From Chiloscyllium plagiosum (lineage: Eukaryota): a stretch of 40,079 bases of DNA. Position numbers and translations under genes: made by a program. The notes under the pieces were generated by a model. That model was not told the DNA's origin. It made no database searches and saw nothing but the letters and a program-made list of their open reading frames with translations. This document shows positions 1 to 32,539 of this stretch, in pieces. The DNA lies in assembly GCF_004010195.1 (NCBI RefSeq), contig NC_057757.1, positions 7,233,304 through 7,273,382 on the forward strand, in the 5' to 3' direction. Every line of letters starts with the position of its first letter. Positions within the stretch are counted from its first letter, which is position 1.

Positions 1-322
1 AGTACAGGAAGGAGAGGGAAGGGGAGGAAGAATGGAAAGGGGAAGAATGGAGATGGAAGGGGAGGCAGGGACATGGAAAGGGTGAGGGAGAGGTGAGTAG
101 AAGGAGGCTGGAGTGGGAGGTGACAGTGAGGGGATAAAGGACGGTTCTGTGTGAGTGCACGTGGTTTGTGTGCACCATGTGTGTGTATGAAGTGTGAGTT
201 CCATGTGAATGCACTGGTGTGTGAGAGATGTCTGAGTTGGCATGTGTGTGTGCAAGCTGTGTCTGTTAGTAACACTGCTGAGGAAATCTCACCTGTCACT
301 ACTGTATCTCCCCTCACCACAG

Positions 323-480
323 CAAAGGGAGCTAATGCAATAACACTGCAGTCACACGAGGCAACAGATTTCCTGCGGACACCTCCCACTCGCAGCCGAC
401 GCCACATCAAGTGGTACCAACAGAATCCTGACTTCCAAGCGTGGTACAAGTATTACCAGAAAATCGGCCACAATGAAGGG
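323..480 (+). CDS. Actinodin-family protein, internal coding exon (propeptide, RSRR cleavage site, start of conserved N-terminal domain)
   Basis: Acceptor ccctcaccacag|323 (phase 1) and donor GGG|gtgagc at 481 (phase 0). Encodes AKGANAITLQSHEATDFLRTPPTRSRRHIKWYQQNPDFQAWYKYYQKIGHNEG, which matches my recollection of teleost actinodins (RxRR..WY...PDFQ.YY.YY..IGH.EG). Splices in frame to 3008. The paralog (and1-4) cannot be assigned. Confidence 0.85.
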
Positions 481-825
481 GTGAGCACCAGCCGTGGGAG
501 GTCTGCCCCACAATGTTATATCAGCTGGGGGGGCATCGCGGTTACTGTGCAGCTTGAAATGTCACAAATCACGGGAAACTGGAGTCAAGGAAAGAATGAA
601 TCCTGACTTAGAGAAACATGTGTTGAGAAGGGATTTGCAAATCGAGTGGCTAACCTTGTTGAGCTCCTCAATGAAGCAACGGGGAGGGTTGCTGAAAGTA
701 GTCCATCTCTTGCTAGAGTGGGGAGGAAACGTACTTTTGAAGGAACTTTGTGGAGGGGTGCTATAATCGAAATGGGACACATTTGGGGTGGGTGGAAAAG
801 CAGGGGGGTGCTTATACACACCTAG

Positions 826-1115
826 CAGTGGGGCAGTGGTAATGTCATAAGTATTCCAGAGACCTGGGCTCATGGGATCAAATCCCACTATGGCAAACGG
901 TGAAAATTGAATTTTAAAAAAATCTGGAAGGAATGGTGGCCATACAATCACTGTCAAATGTTGTATAAACCCATTTAGTTCACTAATGCCTCTTTAGGGA
1001 AGGTAATCTGCCTTCACGTGACTCCAGACCAATGGAATTGAATCCTTAACTGATAACAATGCAATCAGAGTCAAGCAATGAATGCTGGACCACACACATA
1101 TCATGGACATTTTAA
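826..1115 (+). mobile_element. Second SINE family (core GTTCACTAATGTCCTTTAGGGAAGGAAATCTGCC...GTGACTCCAGA), degenerate
   Basis: tRNA-like head; related copies at about 9790-10115, 12328-12505 and 14527-14858; tail shared with the second LINE family. Confidence 0.65.
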
Positions 1116-2087
1116 AAAAATACCTTGGGGTGGGCGGGAAGAAGAGTTAATAAAAGTGTACACAATACGTGACTTTGTCATTAAACACTAAATCAAAAGA
1201 CAAGGAATGGAAACCAGGAGGAGTAGGCCATTCAGCCCTACAAACCTTCTCCACCATTCAATATGATCATGGCTGACCCTCTATCTCGACGCCATACTCC
1301 CACTTCCTCTCCATAAGTTTAAAAGGCTTCAACCACATTCTTGAATGTGTTCAGCAACTTTCTCTGCACAGCCTTCCTCACAAGTTCACTACTCTGAGTG
1401 AAGAAACATTTCCAGATCTCAATCCTCAGTAGTCTACCCCGTCTCCTGAGACTGTGTTCCTTGTCTCTAATTAACCTTCATGGAGGTTGGATCACAACAT
1501 ATTTTAAGAGCAGGCAGATTTCTGAAAGAAAGGGGGAGTTGAGAACTGGGACAAAAAAGGAGGAATTTCTTATCTCCGAGGGTAGCATACCTGTAGAATT
1601 CTTCACCACAGAGAGCTGTTGAGGCTGGGTCATTAAATACATTTGAGACAGAGATAGATTTTTAGTCAGTAAGGGTGTCATGGGTTATAGAGAAAAGGAG
1701 GGAGTCTCTTCGAGTGTCTTCTCACGTGGGGATGTCGAAGGTTTCAAAATACCTGTTGTGTATTTATGGCGAATCAGGAATTGAATACAGGCAGCTATCG
1801 CTGCTTTCAGTCTTTTCTCAAATCCTCCGTCTTACCCGCGGTGATTGGAGCTATCCAATTGCTAATAGTGCCAAGAGGCACTGACCAAACAGCAGCAACC
1901 ACTGACTAAACAAGCAGTTGGCCGGGGACTGCAGTACTAAAAGATAACTTTGATGTGGATAAAATAGCTTGAGGAATTAAAGGTGGAGGAGGTGGGTACA
2001 ACATTGAAAAGGCATCTGGATGAGTACATGAATAGGAAGGGTTTAGAGGGAATACAAGCCAAAATGCTGGCAAATGGCAGTAGATCA

Positions 2088-2375
2088 GCACGGTAGCTCA
2101 GTGGTTAGCACTGTTGCCTCACAGCGCCAGGGTCCCAGGTTCAATTCCAGCCTTTGACGACTGTCTGTGTGGAGTTTGCACATTGTCTGCGTGGGTTTCG
2201 TCCGGGTACTCTGGTTTCCTCCCACGTTCCAAAGATGTGCAGGTCAGGTGTTGTGGCTATGCTAAATTGTCCATAGTTGCTAGTTGCATTAGTCGGGGGG
2301 CGGGTTACTCTTCAGAGGGTTGGTATGGACTTGTTGGGCCAAAAGGCCTGTTTGCACACTGTAGGGAATCTAATC
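2088..2375 (+). mobile_element. tRNA-derived V-SINE (HE1-like)
   Basis: A box TAGCTCAGTGG, B box GGTTCAATTCC, V-domain TGTGTGGAGTTTGCAC...TCTGCGTGGGTTTC, CR1-like tail. Confidence 0.85.
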
Positions 2376-3007
2376 AGTTTAGGATACGTGAACGAGTTGG
2401 ACTGAAGGGGATGTTTCTGTGCTGTACGTCTCTTTGACCACAATGTTGTTGAATGTTGGAGCAGATCCGATGGGGTCTCCTATATCCTTTGGAAATCTAC
2501 AAGGCTGGAATACAAACCAAAATATTATTACCTGGGATGTTGATGTCTGCCAGTCCCCTCCAGGCCATTATCGTGCCTCTGGTCACAGTACACTCCATCT
2601 TTATGGGCACCATAGCGTGGACAGCAAAAGATGGGCAGTCAGATATCACTGCCACTCCCAACAGTCTGCAGCCTGTTAATGGCCACTTTGGCTGGGGGTT
2701 TTGGGGGGGGTGGGGGGAGCCCCTCCGATCTGGCCGCTCACTCCTAAACCCCTCATTTCTTCAGACGGGGCTTACCCACAGATTTGGAGTTGGCACAATT
2801 TGAGGGGGAGGGAGCGAGATTAAGGGAAGGGGAGGGAAGCTGGAGGAGAGACTAGAAGGCTAACGTTCTCGGGCTGCTGAGATTGGTGAGGGAGGACAGA
2901 GGTGGTTTCCGTGCCGACACTGGGAGCGGACAGCAGCAGGGGTTTTCGCAGCTGGCAATGTAAGGATCAGTTTTCCTCCTGTTTCACCGTCTCTTTGCTC
3001 TCTCCAG

Positions 3008-4216
3008 CTGTACGAAATCGATCGGATTCGGCTAATCTATCTGCAAATGAGGCACCTAGAGAACGTCTACGGAAAGAATGCCCCATTCTATCAATATACC
3101 ATCGGCCTTGCACCGACACACGGCAAAGGGGTGTCCGCTCCCTCCTGTGATCCCAAGACAGACAAGAACTGTAAATCACAGCCACCGCCCCCTAAGGTGC
3201 CCGTGGCCCAACCCCCGCCCCCACCCAAAAAGGCTCAGCCTGCAGATCCACCTCAGCTGGCCTGTAATCCCCATGACCCTGCCTGCCTGCTGCAGTACTT
3301 CTACCAGTTCCTAGCCAATGTTCAGACGGACTCCAAATGTGACCCCAAAACGGATCCCAAGTGCCCACGAGTGGCCAGAACACTGCCCTGCGACCCCAAG
3401 TACGACTCGTCCTGCATGTCCTCCACGTCTGCGGGCAGGCACTACAAATCCATGCACTGTGACCCCGTGTATGACCCGGACTGCGAGGAGGACGAGGAGG
3501 AGGAGGGCAGCGATGGGCAGCCTCCGACGCCTGAGCCGTGGGGAGCTCAGGGTCCTGAGGGAGATGAGCACTCGGAGGACGATGACGTTGATCCTTATGA
3601 CCCATATTATCCTGGTTACTATGACCGCTATCATCAGCAAGGCGCCTCTCCGTATGGAAATCCACATGGTGGCCCTACAAATGAGAATCCATACGATGCC
3701 TCTACGTATGGAAATCCATACGATGCCTCTACGTATGGAAATCCACACAGTGACCCTACAAATGAGAATCCACACAGTGCTTCGGTGAATGGAAATCGAC
3801 ATGGGACCTCTACAGATGAGAATCCATATGCTGTCTCTACATATAGAAATCCAGAGAGTATCTCCACGTATGATAATCCATATGGTTCCTCTCCCTATAG
3901 GAACCCTTATGGTGCTTCTCCTTATGGAAATCCATACGCCGCCTCTCCCTATGGAAGCCCATACGCCGCCTCCCCCTATGGAGACCCATACGCCGCCTCC
4001 CCCTATGGAGACCCATATGGCACCTCTCCCTATGGAGACCCATACAGCGCTTCGCCCCATGAAAACCCATATGGCACCTCGCCCCATGAAAACCCATATG
4101 GATCTCCCTACAACCCACCATACGGATCTCCCTACAACTCCCCTTATGCCTCACCTTATGACCCTCGTTACAATCATGAGGATGAGGACGAGGATGAAGA
4201 TGAGGACGAGTATTAA
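3008..4216 (+). CDS. Actinodin-family protein, terminal coding exon (402 aa + TAA)
   Basis: Polypyrimidine tract ctctttgctctctccag|3008. LYEIDRIRLIYLQMRHLENVYGKNAPFYQ continues the actinodin domain in frame with ORF 3047-4216. Five Cys repeats (CDPKTDKNC, CNPHDPAC, CDPKTDPKC, CDPKYDSSC, CDPVYDPDC) fit the actinodin C(N/D)PxxDPxC motif, followed by acidic and Tyr-rich regions. Confidence 0.88.
   Translation: MYEIDRIRLIYLQMRHLENVYGKNAPFYQYTIGLAPTHGKGVSAPSCDPKTDKNCKSQPPPPKVPVAQPPPPPKKAQPADPPQLACNPHDPACLLQYFYQFLANVQTDSKCDPKTDPKCPRVARTLPCDPKYDSSCMSSTSAGRHYKSMHCDPVYDPDCEEDEEEEGSDGQPPTPEPWGAQGPEGDEHSEDDDVDPYDPYYPGYYDRYHQQGASPYGNPHGGPTNENPYDASTYGNPYDASTYGNPHSDPTNENPHSASVNGNRHGTSTDENPYAVSTYRNPESISTYDNPYGSSPYRNPYGASPYGNPYAASPYGSPYAASPYGDPYAASPYGDPYGTSPYGDPYSASPHENPYGTSPHENPYGSPYNPPYGSPYNSPYASPYDPRYNHEDEDEDEDEDEY
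3641..4099 (+). repeat. Coding tandem repeat, 17 x 27 bp (9 aa, consensus about xASPYGNPY)
   Basis: Units from GASPYGNPH to GTSPHENPY counted directly in the translation; 459 nt = 17 x 27. Confidence 0.9.
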
Positions 4217-4866: not shown

Positions 4867-4872
4867 AATAAA
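4867..4872 (+). terminator. Probable polyadenylation signal of the actinodin gene
   Basis: First AATAAA I found after the stop codon, about 650 nt downstream. Confidence 0.55.
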
Positions 4873-11307: not shown

Positions 11308-11448
<141 letters not shown>

Positions 11449-11744
11449 CTAAGAGACAGGGAGATACAGACAGCAGTGAGAACATCGCATTGCCACAGAG
11501 CCAGACCTCAGCCATCTGGCTGGGCAAACAACGCAGAATCAGAAGATAACTGAGATGCAGGAGGAGCCCACTCCGCGCATCATATCTGCACTGGCTCACC
11601 GATTCTCCCACCTGCTCCCTGCGATCCCACACACTCCCCCTTTTAAGATAACTCTTAATTCCCTTCTGAATGCTTCGATTGAACCTCCCTCCACCATACA
11701 CTGCTCCATGTCTGTAGTGAGCAGACATAATCAAAACATCCGTG

Positions 11745-11915
11745 CGATGGGTTTCCAACGCCCCTCCCCCAAGTCCCTCCTCCCTACCTTTTATCTGAGC
11801 CTGCTTGGCACACTTTCCTCGTTCCTGAAGAAGGGCTCATGCCCGAAACGCCGATTCTCCTGCTCCTTGGATGCTGCCTGACCTGCTGCGCTTTTCTAGC
11901 AACACATTTTCAGCA
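11745..11915 (+). mobile_element. Penelope terminal-repeat fragment with hammerhead-like core
   Basis: CTGAAGA-A-GGGC-TCAT-GCCC-GAAACGCC from 11825, followed by the family tail GATGCTGCCTGACCTGCTGCGCTTTT. Confidence 0.75.
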
Positions 11916-11924
11916 CTATCTTAA

Positions 11925-12830
11925 AGACACTAAATGACTTGAGTTCCACAGCCTTCGCCGTCAGTGACACTCACCAACCTCTGGCTGAAGAAATTTCTTC
12001 TCATCGGAGTTCTAAAGGACAGTCCCTTCACTCCAAGGCTGTGCTCTCGCGTCCTCGTCTCTCCTGCCAGTGGAAATAGTTTCTCCACCTCCATGCTATC
12101 CAGGCCTCTAAGTACTCTGTAAATGTCAATGAAATCTCCAATCCCTCATCTCTTTGAATGCCATCGAGACCTAGAGTCTTCAATTGCTCCTTGTGTAATA
12201 AGCCCCTCATCCCTGGGATCATGCTTATAAACCTCCTCTGGACACCCCCTCCAAGGTCAGCACGTCCTCTTAGATACGGGGCCCAAAACTGCTCGCAATA
12301 TTCCGAACTTGCCTGCTTTATGCAAGGCCTTTAGGGGAGGGAATCTGCTGACCTTACCTGGTCTGGTCTACATGTAACTCCCAATCCACAGCTATGTAGG
12401 TGATTAAGTGCCCTCTGAAAATTGCTGAACATGTTACTCAGTTCAAGGGATGGGTAACAATACCGAGCCAGCAACATCCTCACCACATGAAAGCATGAAA
12501 AAAGATGAGAAGATGTACAAGAGAACACTCAGAGAAATTGCAAAGACGCAAAAGCTACAGAGTAATGATAACGGGAGATTTCAATTAATAAAAATTAAAT
12601 AACTCAAAAACTAGAACAGTGACGACATAAAGGATAGTCATCGATAACATTTTCTTGTTGGTATGTTTCTGACTCCAAAGGGTATAAGGCGCTGCTAATT
12701 TAGTTTTGAAGAATCAAGCTCACCAAATCTCGGTGGGGGAGCATTCAGGGAACAGCAATCATAACACCATAACGTTTAAACTAACTATGGAAAAGTAGGA
12801 ATCCAAAATAAAAATTATTTAGTTAGAGTA
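11925..12830. mobile_element. CR1 fragments: 3' end on minus (11925-12310); degenerate endonuclease region on plus (about 12520-12830)
   Basis: MIPGMRGL..EQLKTLGL on minus; ITGDFN and SVGEHSGNSNHNTITF on plus. Confidence 0.6.
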
Positions 12831-13349
12831 GGTAGGTAGTCAAACAGACAAGGATACAAGCATATCCTTTTGGCAAATATCTGCACATTAGCAAGTTGTT
12901 CCCTCCTTTACTATCCAGTCCAGAGACAAATAGAGCCAAGCTAATTCACTGACTTTTCTCATTAAGCTCTAAGAAACCTCAAGCCATTGATTATTTTGAA
13001 GCTTCTCAAGAGTACATTTGCTGGCACAGATGTATTCTTTTGAACCATGCCTACCCCTGGCCCCTCTTTCCCTGGAATGTAAAAGCTCAACCACGCAACT
13101 GTCTCACCAGTTACATTCCCTTAGCTTGAGTCACAACATTTCTTGGCAATTCTATTTCGACCCATTGCTTTAAAAAAACGATTCTGACCCTCAAAAAAAC
13201 AAAGTCACATTCACAAACTGAAAAACAAACTCCACTTACCTCTACTTTAGGTCCCAAGTTTCCAAATAAGAAGAAAAGACTATAAACGTTCCTCACACTA
13301 TGACCACAACTTAGAAAGAATATACTGGCCTCGGCATGTGGTGCAGAAC

Positions 13350-14145
13350 ATAACTGGGGCTTCCGCAATTAGGTAATGAGAAGACATGACATTTTGTCTT
13401 TGCAGATATGTACAAGGTCAGGGAGATTTGCTTGAGGATTCAAGATTTTGAAAAGAATCGAGGAATATAGAGAAGAACTCCTCCTGCTGATGGTGGGGAG
13501 TTTAGGGTAAAAGGTGCATGACCATAAAATCAGAGCCAGTCTATTCAGGATGGAAGGTAGAAAGCTCTTCTTTATAAAAAGGATGACGTGGATAAGACTT
13601 TTTCACTGTATAAGGATATCAGGAGCTAAAGTGGCAGAGAAAAAAAAATGAAGTAAAAATATAGACGAGGAATTATGAAGGATATTATTAAGCTGGAGAG
13701 AGTTCAGAAAAGATTTATCAGGATGTTGCGGGGTATGGAAGGTTTCAGTTATAAGGAGAGGCTGGGACCTTTCCACTGGATTGTAGTAGGTTGAGGGGTG
13801 ACTTTATAAAATCATGAGGGGTAATAAATAAGGGGAATGGCAGGTGTCTTTTCCCTAGGGTGGGGGATTTCAAGAGTAGGCAGCATATTTGTAAGGTGAA
13901 AGGAGAAAGACTTAAAAATGACATGAGGGACAATTTTATTTCTTTCTTTTACACAGTGTGTGGAACGAACTTCCAGAGGATGCAGGTACAGTTACAATGT
14001 TTAAAAGTCGTTGACATACGTACATGAATAAGAAATGCTTGGAGGGATATAGCTCAAGCACAGGCAGGTGGAGCTGGTTTAGTTTGGGATTATGGTCGGC
14101 ATGGACTGGTTAAACTGAAGAGTCTGTTTCCGTGCTGTATGAGTT
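13350..14145 (+). mobile_element. CR1 3'-end fragments
   Basis: LERVQKRFIRML...VWNELPE...LEGY similarity. Confidence 0.75.
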
Positions 14146-14198
14146 CTGTTCCCCTCAAGGGTGGAGTGATGGGTTTTGCTTTGCATAAGTTAAGCTCA

Positions 14199-14351
<153 letters not shown>

Positions 14352-14526
14352 TTAAGAACACAAATGGAACATTGCAAAACAAGCAGCTCGATGCATCCTA
14401 TCCTGAGCTGAGACTGATATGCACTCCAGCCTGACTGCCCCCCCACATATCCACCTCCTCACAAACAGTATACCCCCTCTCCATGTCCCTTACACCTATC
14501 TCAAAACCCTATCTGCACCAGCCATA

Positions 14527-14858
14527 GGGGAGATGGTGGCATAGTAGTAATGTCCTGGACTAGCAACCCAGAATCACCAGCTAATATTCTGGAGACTTGG
14601 GTTTGGGAGATGGTGAAACTGAGCTCAAGGAAAACCTGGCATTAAAAAGAAGCTAGCATAAGGGCAGCTGCGTAACCACCAACTATCATTATATAAACTC
14701 ATCTGAGTCACTAATGTCCTTTAGAGAAGAAAACCTTACCTGACCTACACGTGATTCCAGAGGCACAACAATGCGTTAATGGCCCTCTGGGCATTTAGCG
14801 GTGGGCAATAAATCCCGGTTCAGCCAATGATCCCCACATTGAATGGATAAAAAAAACT
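14527..14858 (+). mobile_element. Second SINE family copy
   Basis: GGTGGCATAGTAGTAATGTC head, CACTAATGTCCTTTAGAGAAG core, GGGCAATAAAT tail and A-run. Confidence 0.7.
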
Positions 14859-15017
14859 GAGAAGACCTAAAGGGCATACTCCCACTACCAATGCGACACA
14901 GACAGACACACAGACACAGACACACTCCCCTCTCCAGGAGCCACATTGGTTCCTTACACTCCCCACACTACCACCCAGCCACTGACTGCTGGAAGAAGGT
15001 GCAGTGGGCTCTCCTAC

Positions 15018-15110
15018 CTGACTCTACAGCTTTGACGTATTCCAGGATGACACGGACCCGACTGTGCAGCATCTTAATGGCGCTGTGTTGTGCAATGAGA
15101 TGTTCAGCCA
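15018..15110 (-). CDS. COPS6: COPS6 exon 8
   Basis: [31 protein letters not shown]; acceptor ttacag, donor gtagga. Confidence 0.96.
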
Positions 15111-15490
15111 CTGTAACAGGATCAGAAGGGAAGTCAGCTAATTGCTTAGGGGAAGGAGGCAGTAAGTTCCAGGGTTTCCTGTGGTGGAGGGGTTGCTGGG
15201 TCACACTGAGCCACCATTTTACAGGGACATTATCAGACAAACAATACTGAATCACCTTCATAGACAGGAGTCAATTACCAAAAGCTTAGGGATAGGGAGT
15301 TGGCTAGCTCAGTTGGCAGGATGGCCAGTTTATAAAGCAGAGTGTTGCCAACAACATGGGTTCTGGTCACCGACTCAACCTCTTCCCCCTCACCTGAGGC
15401 GTAACCTCAGATTAAACTATCACCAGTTGTCTATCTGTCTGTCTCTCTATGTTCCCAACCTCTTTCTTACCCCTTGATATCTTTTTAAAA

Positions 15491-15789
15491 ACACAGAATC
15501 CCTACAGTGTGGAAAGCAAGCTATTCTGCCCATCGGGTCCACACCAACAATCCAAACAGCATCGCACCCTATCCTTGGGATTCTACATTTCCCATGGCTA
15601 ACCCACCTCGCCTGCGCATCCCTGGACACTATGGGACAATTTAGCATGACCAATCCACCCTAACCTGCACATCTTTGGACTGTGGGAGGAAACCCACACA
15701 GACACTGGGAGAATTTGCAAACTCCACACAGACAGTCGCTTGAGGGTGGATTTGCATCCGGGTCCCTGGCGCTGTGAGGCAGCCATGCT
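15491..15789 (-). mobile_element. tRNA-derived V-SINE (HE1-like)
   Basis: Same family, full length. Confidence 0.85.
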
Positions 15790-15989
15790 CACCACTGAGC
15801 CACCGTACCACTCCATCTCAATTAATATCTCAAATATCAGCTGGGTGTCAATGCAGAACAGCAATAGGGAAGAATATTTATTTAACGGTGACAGCCTGGG
15901 TTGTGTTGAACATCAAAGGAACTTGAATGTCCTTGTGCAGGAGTAACTATGTCTTATTGCAATCATATAGAGCATAGTTTGAGACCAAG

Positions 15990-16440
15990 CCTGCAGCACT
16001 GACGTATTGGCCTCTTTCCACAAGGGAAATGCATATTTGATAAAGATGGAGTGCAATGTATGCCCACCAAACCAGTTCCTGAGATAGATGGACTGTGCCA
16101 GGAGGACAGATTGTGGAAACTGGGCCTGCATTTTCTAGCGTTTACAAGAATGGGAAGTGATCTTATTGAAACCGACAAGGTTCCTACAGTAACCATCAAG
16201 ACAGAGGCAGGAAGGATGTTTCCCCCTAGCTGGGTCAGTGGTCCAGAACCAGGGAATCCAGTCTCAGTGTAAAGGGCAGGCCAATTAGGACAGAGATGAG
16301 GAGCTTCTTCACTTGGGGGCCGAGTGGGGGTGGGGGAGGAGGTGGTGATGGAGAGTTGGTGAATCATTGGACTTCTCTGCCCTAAAGGTCTGTGGAGTAT
16401 CAGTGACTGCCTGTGCACCAGGCAGAGAACAATCAATTAC
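15990..16440 (+). mobile_element. Degenerate CR1 3' fragment
   Basis: RPSLQH..YWP..GSDLIETDK..RMFP similarity to the CR1 ORF2 C-terminus. Confidence 0.65.
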
Positions 16441-16717
16441 TCCATACTAAAACCAGCGAGAGACAGTCAAAGAAAACGGAACTGACGTAAAACAAATTTG
16501 TTCCGATCTCCATGAGTGGCTCGCTCTTCCTGACGAGGCACTGTTCAGTTGGCAAAAGGGCAACTTGTGGCCTGGGACGGTGAGTTCGGTTACATTCTAT
16601 AACTGACAGTTTGCTCCTGTTCGATGGGACTGGGGTTTGCCCCAGTCTCCCGGCAGCTGTGACAAGGATAAGGCATTATCTCTAACCATCCTTGTCGCCC
16701 TCCCCCAGCCCAGCTCA

Positions 16718-16930
<213 letters not shown>

Positions 16931-18399
16931 TCACACGCTCTCCATGGAAACTTGGACTGGGGCTCTGCAGCCAGTGTGTCACTTGGAAAATGCACAGCGT
17001 CCTCCCTGATCAGGATCAGTAGGAATCCACTCATCAGCTCAGTAGGGCTGCCTGCCGCATGTGAGCAGACGAGACAGAACAGCCCTCCTCTGCGAGGCCT
17101 CTTTAGGCAGAATGGCTTGCTGATTCTCACGAGGACTCGCACATTGAGAACGATCTGTCGGTCAGCCAGCCTTCTTGTGGAGCCGTATCCTAGTCGGAGT
17201 CGGTGAACAAGGCACAGACCTAGCAAAAATAGTGGGGGAGGGCAGATAAGCCAAGCTCCAGGACAATTAGGGTCGGGCAATGATTGCTGGCCTGGTCAGC
17301 TGTGAGCACAAAAACAAGGTGATGGGAGGAGGGGGTGGAGGAACTTGCCAGCCCACTCAGGGTGGGTTTGGGAAGGGATTAGTGTCTGCTGTTGTGCGAA
17401 CCCTCCAGCTGGCTGCTGAGCAGAAAGGCAGAGTCCCACATCCCTGGGACTGAGAGCCTCTAGAGTTCACTGCAACGGAGCAGCCAAGGTCAGCAGTGGT
17501 GAATGACCCCAAATCTGTCATGTTGAAACAAGGAGCCATTTTGGATTGCCCGAGCTCTCACTCCTGATAGTCAGTGAGTGGTGAGACAGGAGGTGGAGAC
17601 GTAGTGGCACTGCCTGGACATGGGGCCAGAAGATGACTCAGCCTGGGAAAGTGCCAGGAAATGCCAACATCCTAGGATGCGCCCATTTCTATTCTCGCAC
17701 AACTTAGAACATGAGAACAGTGACCAGAGTCTTCAGACTTGCCTGAAAAGGATTTGGAAAACAGCAAAAGACCAACAGGCAGGTGGAAAAAATGGAACTG
17801 CACCCTCAATAATGTGAAAAGAACTGAGGCAACCATTTGTCGTTCACACAAAGAAAAGTTACTGGCGAGAGTGAATGAATAGAAAGGATCAGGGGTTCAG
17901 AAACACAATCTTTCAGAAATGAGAGAGCGGGGAATACACGGCAACACAATCTGGGGTGTATAAATAAGTGTACTGTGTGCAAGAGCAAACAAATTCACTT
18001 GCAACATTGGTTATTTCACAGCTAGCACAGTGTGTGGAGTTTTGAATACCTCACTCTTCCAAGACATTAAAAGCCACAGAGGTGGAACAGACTAGGCAGA
18101 TTCATCAGAACGTTAGCAGGAATGAGAAACGACTATTACGAGGAGATACTGGTGACGCTAAAAGAGTCAACGGTTATACACAGATTGGAGGCAGCAAGAA
18201 CCCAAGCTATTGACGGGGAGACAATGGCTATTGGTCAATCAGATTAACGGTTAGAAATTGTCACTAAGAAAGTGTCAAAGTCGGGCGAAATTTCATTGGA
18301 TTGCTGAAGCTGGAAAAGTTTGCCACAGGGAACAATGGAGGCAGAGACCATCACATCTTGCAACACAAAATGAGGCAAATATTGGAAACAGAGGAACAT

Positions 18400-18765
18400 A
18401 CAGGGCTACTGCGAGTGAGCACGGCAGTGGGAATAGTTGGGATTTGATACAATGTTATGGGGAGTAAGCAGGGCAGTGGGATTCATTTAGGGTTGATATG
18501 ATGCTATGGTGAGAGTGCGGGGCAGTGGGATCAGTTGGGATTGATACAAGGCTATGGTGAGAGAATGGGACAGTGGAATTAGTTTAGGATTGATATGGAG
18601 CTACGCAATGATAACAGGGCAGTGGGACTAGTTTGAGATTGATATGGGACCTTGGGAAGAGAGCAGAGTAGTGGGGATTACTCTAGGACAGTGAGACAGT
18701 GGGACAGTGAGATTAGTTTGAAGATTGATATGGGGCTCTGGCGAGAGCGTACGACATGGAATTCT
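18400..18765. repeat. Degenerate tandem repeat of about 49 bp, about 7 copies
   Basis: CAGTGGGA-TTAGTTTGGGATTGATA motif recurs at 18425, 18474, 18523, 18571, 18620, 18669. Confidence 0.8.
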
Positions 18766-19424
18766 TAGTTGATTTCACTAGCAACGGGTCAGCATTATGT
18801 ACCAAAAGGTCTTCCCTCCTGTGGTAAGAATGCCCTGGTTACAGTGAAGAGTGAAAATATACTGCGGATTGCTTGAGAGTTGACTATCTGAAGGGTAAGC
18901 GATAAACAGAAAGTGCTATATCTCTGCTTTTTATATGAATGGTGTGGCACAGGTCTGCAAGTCTCATTAATATATGAATTGACTCGAAAAAGCTTTCCTG
19001 GCAGTTAAAATAAAAAGAAAGAAAAGGAATATAAATAAGGTTGAAATGATTATGGAGATGAAATAAAATGCGACTAATTTAGGTTAAAGACATGCACAAC
19101 CTCAGCCAGAGGAAAATACCAAGATGACATTGCAGTAAATGCACGCATACTGATAGCAACAGGCTGGGACTGTACGTGACACACGCTCAGAAACAGCAGG
19201 ATAGTATCCAGTGTAGGATGTGCAAAGACATTCTACAGGATATATCAATTCATACACCATCCTGGCATGGACTATATTGCTATTCCTGTAGTGTCACTGG
19301 GTCCATAGCCTGGAAATTCCTGCCTTAGCAGCAGTGTAGATGGATCTACGCCCAAGGACTGCTGTGGCTCACCCCCACCTTCTCCAGACCTCCAACACCT
19401 ACACAGGGGGGAATTGCACATTGC

Positions 19425-19850
19425 ACCGAATATGACAGAAACAACTGTACATGGCGCAGGATATATACATAGAGCAACATAAACCGAGGGGAACTGTACA
19501 TGATGCAGGGTGTATACACAAACTGACATAAACCCGAGAGGAACTGTACATGATGCAGGATAGACACACAGACTGACATAAACCGAGGGGAGCTGTAGAT
19601 GATGCAGGATATATACACAGACTGACATAAACGAAAGGGGACTGTACATTGTGCAGGATATGTACACAGACTGATTCAAATTGAAGGAAACTGTACATGA
19701 TACATACACAAACTGAGGGGAACTGTAAATGGTGCAGGATATACACAGACTGATGCAAACTGATGGGAACTGTTCTTAGTGCAGGATAGATACACTAACT
19801 GATACAGAGGGGGACTGCACATCATGAATGATACAGACTGACAGGACAGA
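19425..19850. repeat. Degenerate tandem repeat of about 49 bp, about 9 copies
   Basis: AACTGTACATGATGCAGGATATATACACAGACTGACATAAACCGAGGGG-like units at 19443, 19492, 19542, 19591, 19640, 19689 and onward. Confidence 0.85.
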
Positions 19851-19873
19851 ACTGAAGTTGATTAATTCCATAC

Positions 19874-19921
19874 CTCTCCAGCGATGATATCGATGACTGA
19901 CTCATAAACACTCACTGGAAG
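19874..19921 (-). CDS. COPS6: COPS6 exon 6
   Basis: LPVSVYESVIDIIAGE; acceptor cttacag, donor gtatgg. Confidence 0.96.
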
Positions 19922-21370
19922 CTGTAAGAGAAGAACACTGTCAGGCGGTAAACATTTATTACGCGTGTTCTTTTTTCTGAAGCCAAGACTTTTCCAATTA
20001 AGTGCTACATGGTAGGATCAAGCTGTGGTGCCTTCAGAACAGGAACATGCTTTCAATTTTCCAATCTGGTTGCTTTTATGTTTTCCCCTAATTACCTGCT
20101 GCATTTTCAAAGGCAGTGGCCTCCTGTGTTCAAAGTCCATCCCACTGGAGTCAAACTTCTCCCACTTCAAACTGCTTTTTCCAGAACCCCCTCACCACCT
20201 TCAGGTTTCCAATCCGCCCTCAGGTCGGCGGCTTTTAAAACTCCAGCTCAGCCCAATCTAACCACTGCCGATTTCTGATCCTCCACCACCCGCCCTCTGA
20301 TTCCATGCTGGGACCCTAAACTAACTGGGCTTGCTCCTCCCTCCATGATGGTACCTCGTGGGCAGCACTCAAACACGTCGGAGGTGAAACTCCTATAGTT
20401 TTACTTCAGGCAAATTTCACGTTTAAAATATTAACAAGGGCTCCATTCCAATTGCAAACACCTGGATTTTTAGCGCAGTCAACAGCCGTAATCCATAGCA
20501 TCTGTGCTGACGCTCATTTATACTTAGAAAGCTGAACGTGGATGGCTTGTTCGGAATAAATTTGCTTTCTTCTCTGCTGCCCTGTCAATCAGCTCTTCAG
20601 TATTTAAAGCGAGCTGAAAGATATGGGTGAATTTTCAGGTCTGTTCAGTCCCGTTGCTGGGGCAGACTTTCACTCCACTCCTGGGCCCTTATCAAAGTGT
20701 TTGAAGGATTGCAGGGCTGGAGGAGGTCACAGATCCAGAAGGGGTCATGGAGGGATTTAGAACGTTTAATTTTCGGGTCGATCAGTGGATACAGGGGTGG
20801 GGGTGACCGGGACCAGATGGGTTAGATATGGGTGGCAGAGTTTTGGACGAATGCGTGGGGGAGAAGAAACCTACATAACTTGGGCCTCATCCATCCACCT
20901 GTTGCATACACTTATGGTCAACACCTATATTAGGAGTGACTATTGTAGAATCCTTCTGCAGCCAAAAAGTCTTATCTTGTCACAAAGTGGGCCTGCCACA
21001 GAGGACTAACACCATGTTGAATGGACTAGATTCAAAACAGCTCCAAGTGGGCACCCATGACATGAAAAGGAATCATGCACAGGGTTACAAGCCGTGGGAA
21101 TGGCACTAAGACAATTGCTCATTTCGGGAGCCAGCACAAACGTGACGGGCCCACTAAGACCATGAGACATAAGTGCAAAGATGGGCCATTCAGCTCGTTG
21201 GGTCTTCCATGCCATTCAATGAAACCATGGGCAGCTCTGGTAACCCTCAACTCCCCTTTCCTGCCTCTTCCCCATAACCCTCGATTCCCTTATTGATTCA
21301 AAATCTGTCCATCTCAGCCTGAAATGATCCAGCCTCGACAGGAAAATTCCACAGATCCAACATTCTCTCA

Positions 21371-21570
21371 CAGGTCGTTCTGCAATAATGCGTGTTTTGT
21401 CAACGTGAATTCGCTCTAATATGATTGACAAAAAGAGGATACAGTCTCTAAAATGCAAACGTTTAAAATGTGTGTTGGCCAACACTTTAAGTGCCGTTTC
21501 TACAGCGTGATTTTTCTATAATGCAGAGTTGCACAAGAACACTACCATCGCGTTATAGAAAAACGACCTG
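21371..21570. mobile_element. 200-bp MITE with terminal inverted repeats (Tc1/pogo/Tigger-like ends)
   Basis: CAGGTCGTTCTGCAATAATGCG ... CGCGTTATAGAAAAACGACCTG; interrupts a CR1 tail fragment. Confidence 0.7.
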
Positions 21571-23769
21571 TGTTGCATAAATACCGCCCCCTCCACACTT
21601 CACGTCAGCTCTGACGAACAGCCATCTAGCCTCTAAATATTAGCTTGCTCTCTCTCCACAGGTGCTACCTGGCCTGATTTGATTTCCAGCATTTCTGTTG
21701 TCTCCACAGATTCACTACCGCCCGACAGAAGAGATTCCCCCTCATCTCTTCCTTAAATAGATGAGCCATGATTGTGACAACATACTGCCTGGAAGGTTCC
21801 CTCAAGGTTGCGTGACATGCACAGCCTATCTGATCTTCGGCAATCAACTCAGCGTTAAAGTAGTGGTGAATTTTTCTGTTTCAGTCAGACAGTAGATAGT
21901 GAGGGAACTGGTGGTAAGGTACAAGGTTTGAGTAAGGTATGAATGAACAGGTCTTCCAGTGGTGCCCAGACAGGGAAGGGGATATGTCAGGGCCCAATAA
22001 CAGGAGCCCACAACTCAAAAGGCCTTTTGTTTTCAAGTCAGGAACAGGGCCGCTGTGATTTCTGAGTGTCCTCTAGTCTCTCTAGTACTCAACCGAAGGA
22101 AACCATGCAGGACACTGCAGTGGGAGAAGTAGGACTGTGAGGTGAAGTCCGAGGGTCACGGAGTATTACAGCACAGAAAGAGGCCATTCAGCCCATTTAA
22201 GCAGTGATCTACTCTAATCCCATTCCCCAGCCTGTAACTCGGTACTCTTTGGCATTTCAAGTATTGATCTAAATATATCTGAAATACTCTGACACCTTTT
22301 CAGGCAGTGAGTTCCAGATACCCACCAGCCTCTGGGTGAAAAATAAATTCTTTCTAAAATCCCCTCTAAACCACCTGGCCCTGACCTTAAAGCTGTGCCT
22401 TTTGGTTACTGACCCCTCCACCAAGTCTCCTTCTATCTATACTACCAATCCCCCTCAACTTTCCAACAGCTCTCTCAGCAATTTCCCTGCTCCGAGGAAA
22501 ACAACACCAGCCTACTGAGTTGAAAACTTCTTCCAAACAGCACGCCTCCCAGCACCTTTGGTCATCTGTGATGGCTCTGGCTGTTTTTGTGTCACACAAA
22601 AGGCAGAATCCCAACGGAGAGGTTTAAACCCCTGGGCTGCAGGTCAGATCCTGGTTCTTGGGGCAGTGGGTGACAGAGACCAAATAGCAAAAGTGAGTTT
22701 TCTGAGGAGAGTGTGAGACAGCAGTTTTTAAAGGGAGTTGGTGGTGCTGCTGATGGCTTGGTGGTGGTGGTGGGAGGTGGGTGGGTTTCGTTCCTGAGGA
22801 GAGGGGCTGGTTCACAATGTCAGCAATGTGACGGCCAAGAGGGATCAACATGTGATCAATAAAATCGAAGGGTCCCGACAATGTGAAAGCAGGCCATCTG
22901 GCCCATTGAGTTTACACTGACCCTCCAAACAGGAAGCCACCCCCCCCCCTCCAATGGTCGCTTGAGGGTGGAATCAAACCATCCCTGGTGCCTTGAGGCT
23001 AACCCCTGAGCGACTGTGTCATAGCTTAGTGGGAGTGAGGTCAAGGGGGCAGGAGGGGAATCTCAGTAACGATAACATCAAAGACAATCAATCTTTCGAA
23101 TCAGAAAAGCCAGCTAATGCCAGTCTACAGTCCATTTACACAGAATGCGTTGTATTTCTCCATCTCCTCTTCCATCACCAGAGGAACTGTCTCCCTGAAA
23201 CAACTGCAGCTCCTGGAGTATTGACAAATACAGAGACTGGGGCCTCCTAAAGGCCACACATAAAGCAAACACCCGTCAAAAGCACAGACCCTGGCATTTG
23301 TCTGAAGGCACCTGGCTGTAACTTCAGTTGTTGCAGACAATCAAATCAAAAACATTTGTCCGGAGATTAAGTCAGCACAACATTTTAGCAGCCACCGGCT
23401 TTTAAAACTTCCACTCTGCGTCACGAGTGGATTTGGTCACTAGGTTTGAAAATTAGGAAGGCAAAGCTGGTCACCACGCCGATGGCGGGGGATAGATCAG
23501 GGACAGGTTGAGTGACAACCAGGGAGATTGCTTGCAGCAAAAGGGAGAAGCCACAGCAAACAGAGACAGGAGCAAGTTTCAGGACGTAGGGTGACCACGA
23601 GAGGTGGAGGAAAATGAGCAACACCAGTGAGGCGGAATGAGATGCCGGGGTTGAATGAGGGCAAAGGTATTTGGGACGGGGTGGGATTTGACAAGCACCA
23701 CTGTAACAGCATCAGGACCTGTGGAGGGACAGCGAGTTAACAAAGGCAGAACAACAGGGTGGCATGATT

Positions 23770-24390
23770 TAATAGGGGGCAGCAGCACACTACACAGCAA
23801 TTGGGATTTCAGAAGGACAAGCGTGACTTAGCAAGGATTGTGGTAATGGCATCGCGACCTAATGAGAGACAGTGTCACAGGGCATTGGGGCTGGGATCCA
23901 GCAGGTGGCGGGAGAGTGGCAGTTACACAGAACACCAGGATCTAACTGAGGGCATAGGTGGTGTCGGGCAACGTTTCTTTTAAGCCGTGTGCAGCCACTC
24001 TGGTGACCGGTGCGCAGCGCCTGTTTGTGCTGACCCCAGCGTGCAGAATAAAAGAACAATTTAAGGGAATGCTGATTGTTGGGGTGGCAGGGAGGTGCAG
24101 TGGCACAGAACAGAGATTGGAATCGAATGGCAAATGACTTCACAGAACATCAGCATCAGGATCGAACGGTGATCGGTGTCAGAAAACATGAAGATCAGGA
24201 TCTAACAAGGTGCAGTATTCCAAAATACCGGAGCAGGATCTGACGGGGTAGTGCCACAGAGCACAAGGATTGGGATAAGACTGGAACCGTGCGACAGAAC
24301 ATTATCAGAATGTTCTAAGGGGCAGTATTACTGGAGATTAGGATCGCGGGCTAAAGGGGGGTAGTGTAACACTTAACATTAGGATTTAAT
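23770..24390. repeat. Old, highly degenerate tandem repeat of about 40 bp
   Basis: Recurrent GGGGCAGTGTCACAGAACA...CAGGATCTAAC-like motif; period estimated by eye. Confidence 0.55.
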
Positions 24391-24427
24391 GACAGACAGA
24401 GTGGGGTTTTACATGTAAAGTTATTTA

Positions 24428-24532
<105 letters not shown>

Positions 24533-24774
24533 TCAGTTCCGCCCCGGAAAAACCCTACTGGAGGTACCAGCTCCTCCATGCATTTGCTGTATTGTGACAC
24601 TTCGGGATAAGAGGGTCAGTGCCTGGAGAGGAAAAGCACTGGGTGGTCCAGGAGATCAGAGAACTCACGGTGCAGTGTCCAGACAAGGAGCCTGTCAAAC
24701 TATCCCATACAACACCAGGGCTTCAGCCCCTGGCAAAATGCACATCAGTCACCTTTGTGCCCTGGATTCATATG

Positions 24775-24925
24775 CAATCAAAGGCAAATCCATAACCTGG
24801 GCTGAGAAAATGCAATACTGATGGAGTATTGCAGTGTCTTTGGATGAGATGTAAAAGAGAGGGCCCATCTGCCTTCTCAGATGGATGCTCAAGATCCCAC
24901 AGCATTATTTAATGGAATTTTAAAG
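24775..24925 (+). mobile_element. DeuSINE (SacSINE1/AmnSINE1-like) core fragment
   Basis: TGCAATACTGATGGAGTATTGCA..GTCTTTGGATGAGATGTAAAA..CCCATCTGCCTTCTCAGATGGATG..AAGATCCCA resembles the recalled Deu domain. Confidence 0.6.
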
Positions 24926-25400
24926 GACAAATCATATTTAAATAAATTGCTGGAGTTTTCTGATGAATCATAAAATCGATGAGGATAATACTGAAGTGGT
25001 ATGAATGGAATTTGAAGAGACACCTGAAAGTGTCTTACATCAGACTTACGAGGAGCATCTGTGAAGAGAAAAGAAAGTTGACATTTTGAATCCCGTGATC
25101 CTTCGAGGGACTCTGTTTTTCGCTTCACAGATGCTGCTCATAAATCCAAAGTGCGAAAATTTCAGATGTCTTTTCAAATTGCATTTACACTATCTTAACA
25201 GAATTATTCTCATCGATGTGCCATGCTTCACTGGACTTGAAATGTTCTCTCTCCACAGATGCTGCCACCTGGCTAAGTTTCACCAGCAATTTCTGTTTTT
25301 TTCCAGATCTCCAGCATCCACAATTCTTTGCTTTAATTTATACTTATGTACAAGTGACAAAACGAAAGGAGGGACAGAGAGTAACATGGATACAGAATTG

Positions 25401-25544
25401 AGGTAAAAAACAATGACTGCAGATGCTGGAAACCAGATTCTGGATTAGTGGTGCTGGAAGAGCGCAGCATCCAAGGAGCTTCGAAAACTCCTTGGATGCT
25501 GCCTGAACTGCTGTGCTTTTCCAGCACCATTAATCCATAATCTT
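25401..25544. mobile_element. Short palindromic Penelope-derived insertion
   Basis: Inverted arms; 12-bp TSD GATACAGAATTG at 25389-25400 and 25545-25556. Confidence 0.78.
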
Positions 25545-25868
25545 GATACAGAATTGGCTGAACGACGGTAAACAGGCAGTAGTGTTTCATGGGTGTTTTT
25601 GGACTGGAGGAAGGCTGCTGTACCATGATATATAGTCACAATCTAGACCTTGAGCGTGCTGGGCACAATCTCAAAAACTGCAAACAATACAAAACTTGAA
25701 AGCGTCGTGAACTGCGAGGAGGATAAGGCAGAAGTTGAAAAAGACATATAGGTTGGTCAAACAGGCAGACAAGTTTCAGGTGAAGTTTTCAGAAACAGTA
25801 CGAGGTAGGCTGATCTCATGCTGGACAGGAGTCAGCTAGTACAAGTGCAGTGCTGTGGTGTCAGATTA

Positions 25869-26042
<174 letters not shown>

Positions 26043-26498
26043 TTAGCAAGTTGCTCCATTTGGGAAAGACTCAACCCTTGGAAAGGACGCAAGAAGCAAA
26101 CTGAGGTGGTTTTTCTTTAATCCGCTGGTAACGCTATGAAATAGGTTATTAGATGACCACACATGTTGGTCAATAGATTATGTCACGGGCTTCTGGAAGG
26201 GATAGTGGCTCGCTGGATGGTAGTGGGGAGCACAGCACAAAGTGGGAGGTTGGTGCGCCATGGCAAGGAGAAGGGCAATTGTGTCTTGAGGGCTGGTATC
26301 AGCTTGTGGTCTGAATAAATTGTCATCTCAATGACTCAAGGAATGGAAGGATGCAGCATGATAGGGTGGAATGCCACTCAGTGGTAGAGAACACGCCATT
26401 TAGACCACCAGTAATCACCCCTGTATGGCAGCAGCATGGAGGGCCAACACAGCACCCACATTCTGAGGAACTGTCGATACATGGAGGTGAGATTATTA

Positions 26499-26687
<189 letters not shown>

Positions 26688-26758
26688 CTATTTAAACAGC
26701 AAGCAACACAGGGCCGACCGCATCAATATGGGGAGGAAGTCAACAAGTAGAGAAGACA

Positions 26759-26977
26759 GCGCTGAAAATGTGTTGCTGGAAAAGCGCAGCAGGTCAGGCA
26801 GCATCCAGGGAACAGGAGAATCGACGTTTCGGGCATAAGTCCTTTTTCAGGAAGAAGGGCTTATGCCCGAAACGTCGATTCTCCTGTTCCCTGGATGCTG
26901 CCTGACCTGCTGTGCTTTTCCAGCAATACATTTTCAGCTCTGATCTCCAGCATCTGCAGACCTCACTTTCTCCTCCT
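26759..26977. mobile_element. Short palindromic Penelope-derived insertion (arms of about 88 bp)
   Basis: 26761-26848 is the near-exact reverse complement of 26851-26938; 13-bp TSD AGTAGAGAAGACA at 26746-26758 and 26978-26990. Confidence 0.85.
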
Positions 26978-27169
26978 AGTAGAGAAGACACCATGACAGT
27001 ATTAGGAGCAGGAGCCAGCATACAGCACTCGTGTTCCCTATGGTACAATTGGAAGCGCGCACTCATTTCTGAATTCAAGTCCCAATCTAGGTACATTAAA
27101 CCGTGCCCCTCTCACCTGTCTAAGGTTGGTGTGAAAGAACTGCAGGGGTGCTCTGCCCCGCATCAATTT

Positions 27170-27730
27170 CCTTTCTTTATTGGTTTAAGTGATGTGGGTA
27201 TCACTAGGAGGTGAGCATTTATTACCTGTCCCAAATTGCCCTTGTGAAGGTAGTGGGTGAACTGCTTTCTTGAAATGCTGCACTCCACTTCGTGTCAGTA
27301 CATGCACAATGCCATTAGGGAGGGAGTTCCAGGATTTTGATCCAGTGAAGGAATGGTGATATATTTGCCAGTCAGGATAGTAGGTAGATTAGAGGAGAAT
27401 GGCAAGGGGTGGTGGCTCCTACTTATCTGCTGCCCTGTCCTTCTAGATGGTAGCAATTGAGAGCTTGGAAGGTGCTGTCTAAGGTGCTTTGGTGAATTTC
27501 TATGGTGCATCTTGTGTAGGTGGTACACACTGCTGCTACTGAGCGTCAGCGATGGAGGGAATGGATGATGAATTGGGTGTCAATCAAGTAGGCTGCTTTC
27601 TCTCAGATGGTGTTGAGCTTCTTGGGAGTTCCACGCATCCAAGAAAGGTGCGGATATTCCGTCACTACTTCTTTATAGCTGGTGCGCAGGCTTTGGAGAG
27701 TCAGGAGGCGAGTTACACTCACCAGAATTC
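27170..27730 (-). mobile_element. 3' fragment of a second non-LTR retrotransposon family
   Basis: Minus-strand MYHLHKMHHRNSPKHLRQHLPSS matches + strand 39318-39680; related pieces at about 5283-5770 and 33110-34070. Confidence 0.7.
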
Positions 27731-31146: not shown

Positions 31147-31404
<258 letters not shown>

Positions 31405-32520: not shown

Positions 32521-32539
32521 GGCTGTGGGGGTGCAGTAA

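Follow-up and report, generated by a model that had tools for sequence, protein, structure and literature searches.

The 3′ end of an actinodin 3/4 gene in the shark Chiloscyllium plagiosum and its And3/4-side relatives in salamanders

Organization of the locus

The window, a stretch of 40,079 nucleotides from Chiloscyllium plagiosum contig NC_057757.1, contains the last two coding exons (A and B) of an actinodin 3/4 (and3/4) gene on the plus strand and an intact COPS6 gene on the minus strand. Four of the 23 listed sequencing runs (X1, X8, X12, and X13) were examined. The features of the locus are as follows.

296..322, plus strand: pyrimidine tract and splice acceptor (AG at 321–322) of exon A, assigned from the sequence; a run X1 contig begins at 322
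323..480, plus strand: exon A, the penultimate coding exon, encoding the pro-region, the dibasic site, and the first half of the N-terminal domain
391..402, plus strand: RSRR, putative furin/proprotein-convertase site (predicted cleavage)
481..3007, plus strand: phase-0 GT-AG intron of 2,527 bp (AG at 3006–3007), skipped by the X1 contig and crossed unspliced by X8 contigs
3008..4216, plus strand: exon B, the last coding exon, with 402 codons plus TAA
3146–3172, 3263–3286, 3338–3364, 3389–3415, and 3458–3484, plus strand: five actinodin Cys repeats
3485..3592, plus strand: acidic spacer (Asp+Glu, 17 of 40 residues)
3644..4174, plus strand: Tyr/Pro/Gly/Ser/Asn nonapeptide tandem tail with a 27-bp unit (Tyr 16%, Pro 19%)
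4175..4213, plus strand: terminal acidic run, with Tyr as the last residue
4217..4890, plus strand: probable 3′ UTR with AATAAA at 4867–4872 and a putative end; weaker contigs run on to 5200
11308..32755, minus strand: COPS6, 10 exons, 942 nt, 313 residues, intact, tail-to-tail with and3

Exon A starts in phase 1 and ends in phase 0, with GT at 481, and was 81% identical to residues 39–92 of Heterodontus actinodin3. Exon B encodes the remaining N-domain, Pro-rich linkers, the five Cys repeats, the acidic spacer, and the Tyr/Pro tail. The spliced coding part of the two exons comprises 1,367 nt and 454 residues, with a single stop at its end. As the preliminary description had claimed, RSRR is followed by five C(D/N)PxxDPxC-like repeats, all of which were located; two fit the pattern strictly, two are nine-residue variants, and one has eight residues. 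A relaxed form of the pattern, scanned over the 40-kb window in six frames, gave four matches, each of them within exon B. Tandem arrays with periods of 27, 54, and 81 were found at 3644–4098, and the opposite-strand and shifted open reading frames over exon B were rejected as shadows of this repeat. The intron carries high-copy repeats (about 1915–2436), over which the read depth rose to millions.

The signal-peptide exon and the short second exon seen in orthologues were absent from the window, and tblastn of four orthologue N-termini against it yielded a best E of only 0.24. The earlier claim of an intact gene is shown only for exons A and B, the signal-peptide and second exons lying outside the window. 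No second actinodin copy was found in the window, and an Rfam scan of it gave no matches. The last exon of COPS6 was identical to solved CSN6 at 44 of 45 residues (E 3e-26), and its exon model was open throughout; this gene can serve as a synteny marker for tests of and3 orthology.

Transcript evidence and integrity of the exons

Run X1, presumably RNA although none of the listed runs is on record as such, yielded an 867-nt contig whose letters 1–158 matched window positions 322–479 with no differences and whose letters 159–867 matched 3007–3715 with four differences. Its junction corresponds to 480/3008 displaced by one base, with G on both sides. Splice signals, open frame, and this contig confirm the earlier proposal that 323–480 and 3008–4216 splice in frame; the contig crosses 480/3008, where an absence of reads would have refuted the proposal. 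Contigs from run X8 passed the exon borders unspliced (64–651 and 2731–3229). The single-cell runs, with only repeat-derived reads in X12 and none in X13, had no bearing either way on the junction. The depth of X1 contigs was 13 over 3716–4762 and fell afterwards to 6.9 and then 4.5.

The absence of the first coding exons from the window and the simple-repeat nature of the tail would be expected of a decayed or mis-assembled copy with an in-frame splice arising by chance. However, the exact spliced contig refutes this for exons A and B, the N-domain was 87–88% identical to shark orthologues across the junction, exon B substitutions in runs X1 and X8 were silent in seven of the nine classified, and the neighboring housekeeping gene is intact. 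We consider such a copy extremely improbable.

Identification as actinodin 3/4

A search with residues 1–165 of exon B returned 11 matches, eight of them named actinodin3, with a best E of 2e-77. The N-domain was 88% identical to that of white shark And3 and at most 36% identical to that of any And1/2. In the tree, a 100/99 branch separated And3/4 from And1/2, and the window protein stood on the And3/4 side within a clade of chondrichthyan And3 proteins (97/95). Joining it with a shark And1-like protein was rejected (p 0.002); And1/2 identity was ruled out by the tree and this test. Against profiles built without it, the window protein scored 145 bits for And3/4 and 65 bits for And1/2. It showed the C(N/D)PxxDPxC repeats by which the family has been defined (PMC4764851), two strict and three variant, and a conserved N-terminal domain after the dibasic site, whose two Arg were invariant in all 26 aligned And3/4-side proteins; a hydrophobic leader was visible in its orthologues. 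A search for short N-domain relatives yielded one candidate, which was a partial And3. The profile match P0063 was discarded as a false positive arising from a cadherin repeat.

The sequence, the tree, and the spliced contig mark the two exons as the 3′ part of a functional and3/4 gene in this shark; as to identity alone, this is nearly certain. The previously proposed chondrichthyan actinodin was thus borne out by the similarity search and the N-domain phylogeny, and is refined to And3/4. The expectation that it would be annotated only as uncharacterized was correct for Scyliorhinus and Callorhinchus in some databases, and in five cartilaginous fishes orthologues are already named actinodin3; the window gene is therefore not new as a gene. 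The and3 of Callorhinchus appears in a 2016 supplement, and epaulette shark And3 was previously annotated by hand.

The AlphaFold2 model of the Heterodontus orthologue reached pLDDT values of 83–91 only at residues 71–120, with about 37–50 in the tail, and contained helices at 76–85 and 89–122. The best hit of a PDB profile search was an unrelated protein (E 0.16), and Foldseek with the predicted model gave no matches at E<=0.001. Atlas searches returned actinodin clusters only, with scores of 0.75–0.78, which are leads only. Prediction of an N-domain homodimer gave no answer either way (score 0.00).

And3/4-side proteins in salamanders and lungfish

Unannotated And3/4 proteins were found in three salamanders, namely XP_078527378.1 (Lissotriton helveticus), KAJ1084758.1 (Pleurodeles waltl), and XP_069473502.1 (Ambystoma mexicanum), none of them named actinodin. 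An African lungfish relative, XP_043933298.1/299.1, is misnamed 'HIRA-interacting protein 3-like'. Each salamander protein has the dibasic site and four Cys repeats, an N-domain 51% identical to that of the window protein and 58–61% identical to coelacanth And3, and the Met/Leu-Glu-Tyr motif that precedes the last repeat in bony-fish And3/4. Their tail is short and basic (Lys+Arg 28–35%, Tyr 2%), unlike that of chondrichthyan And3, and no signal peptide is present in the Pleurodeles model. The lungfish protein has diverged further (33%, with three repeats).

The salamander proteins scored 109–118 bits against the And3/4 profile and 38–43 bits against And1/2. Placing them with sarcopterygian And1/2 was rejected (p 7e-6). 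The data were compatible with a sarcopterygian And3/4 clade (p 0.49) and also with salamanders as the first branch on the And3/4 side (p 0.42, on 91 columns only), so that the proteins may be strict orthologues or an old sister paralogue. Judged by sequence, they group with And3/4 and not with And1/2. Contamination was rejected as their source, given three species, contigs of 922, 727, and 1,522 Mb, newt proteins nearest each other rather than axolotl, and no non-amphibian protein above 61% identity.

These three proteins contradict the statement, made in the preliminary description, that actinodins are absent from tetrapods. Papers of April and September 2026 describe the family as missing from all tetrapods (including PMC13120675, in its available text), and one 2026 paper used axolotl limb buds as an actinodin-free comparison. 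Amphibian limbs are described as having no parallel fibers (PMC13573005), so retention of the protein does not require fin rays. And3/4 in axolotl and two newts would confine the loss in that lineage to and1/2 and make it stepwise; published and1/2 experiments are not overturned. The shark gene alone adds one more And3; the salamander relatives, the Augurin matches, and the chondrichthyan tail matter more.

Proposed role in fin fibers

The signal peptide, shown for orthologues only and encoded upstream of exon A, would direct the protein to the secretory pathway, and a convertase cutting at RSRR would leave about 428 residues as the mature chain (48 kDa, pI 4.6). The basic N-terminal domain, a predicted helix-turn-long-helix, may be the conserved unit for binding. 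The five Cys repeats would form a series of small disulfide loops on a disordered, Pro-rich chain, and the long, length-variable Tyr/Pro tail with its acidic Tyr end may act as a spacer and as a cross-linking or charge element. And3 would then co-assemble with fibrillar collagen in fin-fold fibers (ceratotrichia, elastoidin). We give this whole explanation, a functional shark and3/4 encoding a processed, fiber-assembling protein, a probability of roughly two in three.

According to the accessible part of PMC4764851, the non-collagen part of actinotrichia, which are homologous to ceratotrichia, consists of And proteins. In the portions available of two further reports, bowfin and3/4 rose 285-fold as actinotrichia appeared (PMC8423624), and Polypterus and3 marked the fin-ray regeneration domain (PMC12923738). 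Elastoidin is described in the available sections of PMC13120675 as collagen plus a tyrosine-rich compound, in unmineralized fibers. Its Tyr/Pro tail makes And3 a good candidate for much of the non-collagen, tyrosine-rich fraction in sharks, and gives elastoidin's classical tyrosine-rich component a named candidate.

A Tyr/Pro tail with an acidic-Tyr end was present in all eight chondrichthyan And3 proteins, including the window protein, and such an end in none of 15 other And3/4-side proteins; Tyr past the last Cys was 13–18% in the former eight versus 2–12% in the latter. Over the whole protein, Tyr was 6.7–11.3% in And1/2 versus 7.7–11.0% in chondrichthyan And3, so tyrosine content does not single out And3. 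Rather than in cross-linking, the tail may function in mineral control, by binding calcium, keeping fibers unmineralized, or acting in denticles or tesserae. Its two strongly acidic blocks, the low mature pI, its restriction to cartilaginous fishes in the sample compared, and the unmineralized state of elastoidin are in line with this idea. However, teleost And3/4 also have an acidic block (Asp+Glu 12–27% after the last Cys), so acidity is not shark-specific, and we regard mineral control as improbable.

Some observations count against the fiber role: zebrafish and3/and4 are the minor pair, weakly expressed and not rescuing the loss of and1/and2 (PMC13120675, available text), salamanders keep And3/4, and Tyr richness is unspecific. 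The lack of a solved relative or fold match counts against the collagen-binding mode.

Relationship to augurin and otospiralin

Exon A matched Pfam Augurin (PF15187) with E 2e-4 and 21.9 bits, under the curated cut-off of 27 bits. Augurin was the top Pfam family in all 10 And3 proteins compared, none of which passed the cut-off; it matched 18 of 29 further hits, six of the 29 above the cut-off (best E 6e-8), and one of six actinodins in another set passed. The match covers about positions 16–89 of the 114 in the model, including the dibasic site and both helices. Otospiralin (PF15182) matches to the N-domain were weak (E 0.004–0.24). These matches contrast with the description of the family as having no relatives. 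A reverse profile search of 1.84 billion proteins recovered no recognizable augurin among 57 matches at E<=0.001, of which 23 have known names; a relationship of 22–33 bits would fall below that threshold. At the level of profiles, the actinodin N-domain is related to the Augurin family without being a member of it.

And3/4 might instead act chiefly as a secreted regulator in the manner of augurin/ECRG4, its helical N-domain, once released by a convertase, serving as a ligand or matrix modulator in epidermis or cartilage and its incorporation into fibers being secondary. This would account for its survival in lungfish and salamanders, and agrees with the Pfam matches and with N-domains that are 77–90% identical among salamanders versus 61–73% for the whole proteins, as well as with a tail that is acidic in fishes but basic in salamanders. 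A leader and a furin-like site are also features of augurin (PMC10088197), and its four exons (PMC4287990) recall And3 models, which suggest two short exons before A and B. Against it, the reverse search recovered no augurin, two Atlas searches listed actinodin clusters only (all <0.9), the Cys repeats, which lie outside the Augurin match, are kept in salamanders, and and3/4 expression tracks actinotrichia in bowfin and Polypterus. We consider a mainly regulatory role unlikely and prefer the fiber-assembling protein.

Taking these data jointly, we favor, with some reserve, the reading that only and1/2 was lost at the fin-to-limb transition and that the family survived. An and3/4 orthologue would have remained intact and conserved in salamanders (two families) and divergent in African lungfish, with the acidic tail becoming basic, and the family would also be the repeat-extended branch of a convertase-processed secreted group (augurin/ECRG4, otospiralin) kept by tetrapods. 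If so, axolotl is the animal in which actinodin function without fin rays can be examined, and knock-outs in a model tetrapod could test what And3/4 does.

Comparison with known systems

The closest counterparts are actinodin3 of the cartilaginous fishes Heterodontus (XP_067880140.1), Carcharodon, Narcine (XP_069771449.1), Hemitrygon, and Leucoraja (XP_055486825.1), and Callorhinchus LOC103173745, which resemble the window protein in the N-domain (64–88% identity). Five Cys repeats occur in seven of eight chondrichthyan And3 proteins including that of the window, the skate having two, and a partial Heptranchias model ends exactly where exon A ends. Their tails differ in repeat units and in length, with 127 to 320 residues past the last Cys (243 in the window).

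And3 and And4 of bony fishes (teleosts, sturgeon, and coelacanth XP_064408902.1) share the dibasic site, an N-domain of 45–57% identity, and up to four Cys repeats. Many of their predicted fragments stop at the end point of exon A, which suggests a shared phase-0 intron. They differ in having Pro-rich linkers and neither the long Tyr/Pro tandem tail nor the acidic-Tyr end.

And1 and And2, as in zebrafish, lungfish (QNR56071.1), coelacanth, gar, and bamboo shark (GCC32324.1), share the signal peptide, dibasic site, homologous N-domain (27–36% identity), and Cys repeats, but form their own clade (100/99), are longer, and have 5–15 repeats. The zebrafish pair is essential for actinotrichia, and losing both removes the fibers, as reported in the accessible part of PMC13120675. 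Augurin/ECRG4 and Otospiralin, compared by profile alone, resemble the window protein as secreted, convertase-processed precursors with a match to the N-domain, and differ in that the matched part has no Cys repeats or tail.

Structure of the and3/4 gene in the window

The actinodin 3/4 gene (and3/4) is represented in the window by the following features.

323–480, + strand: exon A, preceded by a pyrimidine tract and AG, starting in phase 1, with GT at 481
391–402, + strand: RSRR, a putative convertase site in exon A
3008–4216, + strand: exon B, preceded by AG and ending with TAA

Joined, the two exons encode 454 residues with no internal stop, confirming the in-frame splicing proposed in the preliminary description. 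Four of the 23 sequencing runs listed were compared with positions 1–5200, and the single-cell runs X12 and X13 gave no coverage of the exons. In run X1, presumed as a guess to be RNA, a single 867-nt contig aligned to 322–479 and then to 3007–3715 without a gap, which corresponds to the predicted 480/3008 junction. Contigs of run X8 crossed the exon borders unspliced. Among the exon B substitutions listed and classified, seven of nine were silent; position 4189, dominated by contigs derived from repeats, was excluded. In the 3′-UTR, the X1 contig had two other letters in place of the 56 bases at 4322–4377, probably an allele or species difference.

Five Cys repeats were present within 3146–3484, as previously described, but only two followed the published motif, C(D/N)PxxDPxC, strictly and three were variants. 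The upstream signal-peptide exon was sought in the window; the first coding exons were not found there and lie outside it, so that the term "intact" holds for the last two exons only.

Subfamily assignment

Residues 1–165 of exon B, used as a query, retrieved 11 proteins (143 candidates), eight of which were named actinodin3, including five from cartilaginous fishes. A profile built from ten And3 N-domains (the conserved region after the dibasic site) was searched against 1.84 billion representatives and yielded 57 hits, with And3/4 first, followed by And1/2, plus many gene fragments; one hit was rejected as a cadherin false positive. In a tree of 30 proteins and 91 columns, from which fragments and duplicates were left out, And1/2 and And3/4 were separated with support of 100/99, and the window protein fell inside the chondrichthyan And3 clade (97/95). 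White shark And3 matched it at 88% identity, and no And1/2 protein exceeded 36%. Its grouping with the bamboo-shark And1-like protein was rejected (p 0.002). The latter protein contains 12 Cys repeats, several of them as near-identical tandem units. The searches and phylogeny thus bear out the proposed actinodin identity, and the window carries a genuine, unexceptional shark and3/4 gene. Shark and3 was already known: Callorhinchus and3 appears in the supplement of the 2016 lungfish paper (PMC4764851), and epaulette shark and3 was previously hand-annotated.

Relatives in salamanders and lungfish

The 14th match of the And3 profile was a palmate newt protein, XP_078527378.1 (E 1e-29). As a query it found three proteins (223 candidates): itself, Pleurodeles KAJ1084758.1 (73% identity), and axolotl XP_069473502.1 (61%). 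The three genes are located on contigs measuring 922, 727, and 1,522 Mb, and their products are currently annotated as uncharacterized or hypothetical. The dibasic site and the N-domain are found in all three, along with four Cys repeats and the motif preceding the last repeat of bony-fish And3/4. The three proteins scored 109–118 bits against the fish And3/4 profile versus 38–43 against the And1/2 profile. The preliminary description held actinodins to be absent from tetrapods, but these And3/4-type proteins contradict that statement. Among the 23 of the 57 hits whose names are known (E ≤ 0.001 only), none came from a frog, caecilian, or amniote.

The nearest non-amphibian N-domain was that of coelacanth And3 (58–61%). 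Grouping the salamander proteins with sarcopterygian And1/2 was rejected (p 7e-6). A clade of the salamander proteins plus the lungfish protein described below and coelacanth And3 was compatible with the data (p 0.49), as was the position of the salamander proteins as the first branch on the And3/4 side (p 0.42); the latter makes it possible that they represent an old sister paralogue. Their tails are basic (28–35% Lys+Arg); since the acidic spacer of the shark protein contains 26% Lys+Arg when read in the +1 frame, an origin by frameshift is conceivable. The Pleurodeles gene model lacks a signal peptide, perhaps through an annotation error.

The Protopterus annectens protein XP_043933299.1, annotated as "HIRA-interacting protein 3-like", matched the And3 profile with E 1e-8. 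Its best whole-protein matches in the compared set were the salamander proteins and coelacanth And3. Its N-domain carries a small insertion, and in the 30-protein tree it formed a long branch whose placement inside And3/4 was not starred. By sequence, it looks like a divergent And3/4. The 2016 lungfish paper (PMC4764851) leaves the loss of and3/4 in lungfish unsettled. Lungfish genome papers published since may have settled it; the main text of one of them (PMC7875771) names and1 alone.

Relation to Augurin and Otospiralin

A Pfam search with exon A matched Augurin (ECRG4) as the sole family (E 2e-4), and Augurin was the top family in all ten relatives. It was also matched by 18 of 29 further hits (six above the cut-off, two And1/2-side proteins included) and by three of six additional actinodins; the highest score among all proteins tested was that of the bamboo-shark And1-like protein (33 bits). 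Otospiralin matches were weak (3/29 and 3/6). No recognisable augurin was among the 57 hits of the actinodin profile in the 1.84 billion representatives (E ≤ 0.001, 23 hits named), and no augurin cluster was among the Atlas matches listed. Actinodin and augurin probably share a common ancestor. Judging from human gene order, actinodin- and augurin-type genes may be whole-genome-duplication paralogues. No paper treating actinodin and ecrg4 together was found in a search of mainly open-access literature. The reference list of an ECRG4 review (PMC4287990) includes the screen of Padhi 2004 on zebrafish fin regeneration, which is also cited for actinodin genes.

Protein architecture and proposed role

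An AlphaFold2 model of the Heterodontus orthologue (26 sequences) had a mean pLDDT of 56 and a pTM of 0.28, and was confident only at residues 71–120, where a 34-residue helix comes after a short one; disorder is predicted for the tail. If a convertase cuts the protein encoded in the window at RSRR, the mature chain would have about 428 residues and a pI of 4.6, and its N-domain would be basic (pI 9.2). Beyond the last Cys, an acidic spacer leads into nonapeptides rich in Tyr and Pro, which extend over about 175 residues, and the chain closes with an acidic run and a final Tyr. This acidic run with terminal Tyr was present in 8/8 chondrichthyan And3 and 0/15 other And3/4-side proteins, and tail Tyr contents were 13–18% and 2–12%, respectively. 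Tail lengths in the chondrichthyan proteins spanned 127–320 residues. Elastoidin chemistry was reportedly first established with shark fibres.

In the favoured reading, secreted And3 would co-assemble with collagen in ceratotrichia as a fibre organiser, with the tail as a spacer and cross-linking element (probability roughly 0.7). This reading draws on actinodin family function (PMC4764851, PMC13120675) and on expression in bowfin (PMC8423624) and Polypterus (PMC12923738). It is weakened by the minor status of the And3/4 pair in zebrafish (PMC13120675) and by And1/2 being likewise Tyr-rich.

Other features of the window

The following features were also identified.

11308–32755, − strand: COPS6, complete, ten exons, 313 residues, the 3′ neighbour of and3
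28582–30500 and 37400–39330: broken LINE-type reverse transcriptase remnants, one within COPS6 intron 2
31856–32522: near-perfect minisatellite (22-bp unit, 30 copies, 99%) in COPS6 intron 1
32760–32900: GC-rich COPS6 promoter, lying upstream of the gene; its plus strand carries two ATGs
39665–40079: 29-bp-based array at the end of the window

The COPS6 intron after exon 16756–16870 has a GC donor. The promoter contains what we take to be a CCAAT box and an ETS-like word, and its plus-strand ATGs possibly mark the start of a head-to-head gene; the ORF at 32540–33010 had no Pfam match. The Pfam search matched RVT_1 at 28582–29523 (E 1e-13).

Comparison with published actinodins

The literature compared comprised PMC4764851, PMC13120675, PMC13573005, PMC6497306, PMC8423624, PMC12923738, PMC6054942, PMC11681717, PMC12521223, PMC10416458, PMC10088197, PMC4287990, PMC7875771, and bioRxiv 10.64898/2026.02.08.704681. 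In the passages compared, the mainly open-access actinodin literature on salamanders, amphibians, and lungfish yielded no tetrapod actinodin or augurin link. According to PMC13120675, And genes occur in every gnathostome group but tetrapods. The salamander and lungfish relatives sit in public annotations, unrecognised in the literature compared, and they matter more than the shark gene itself.
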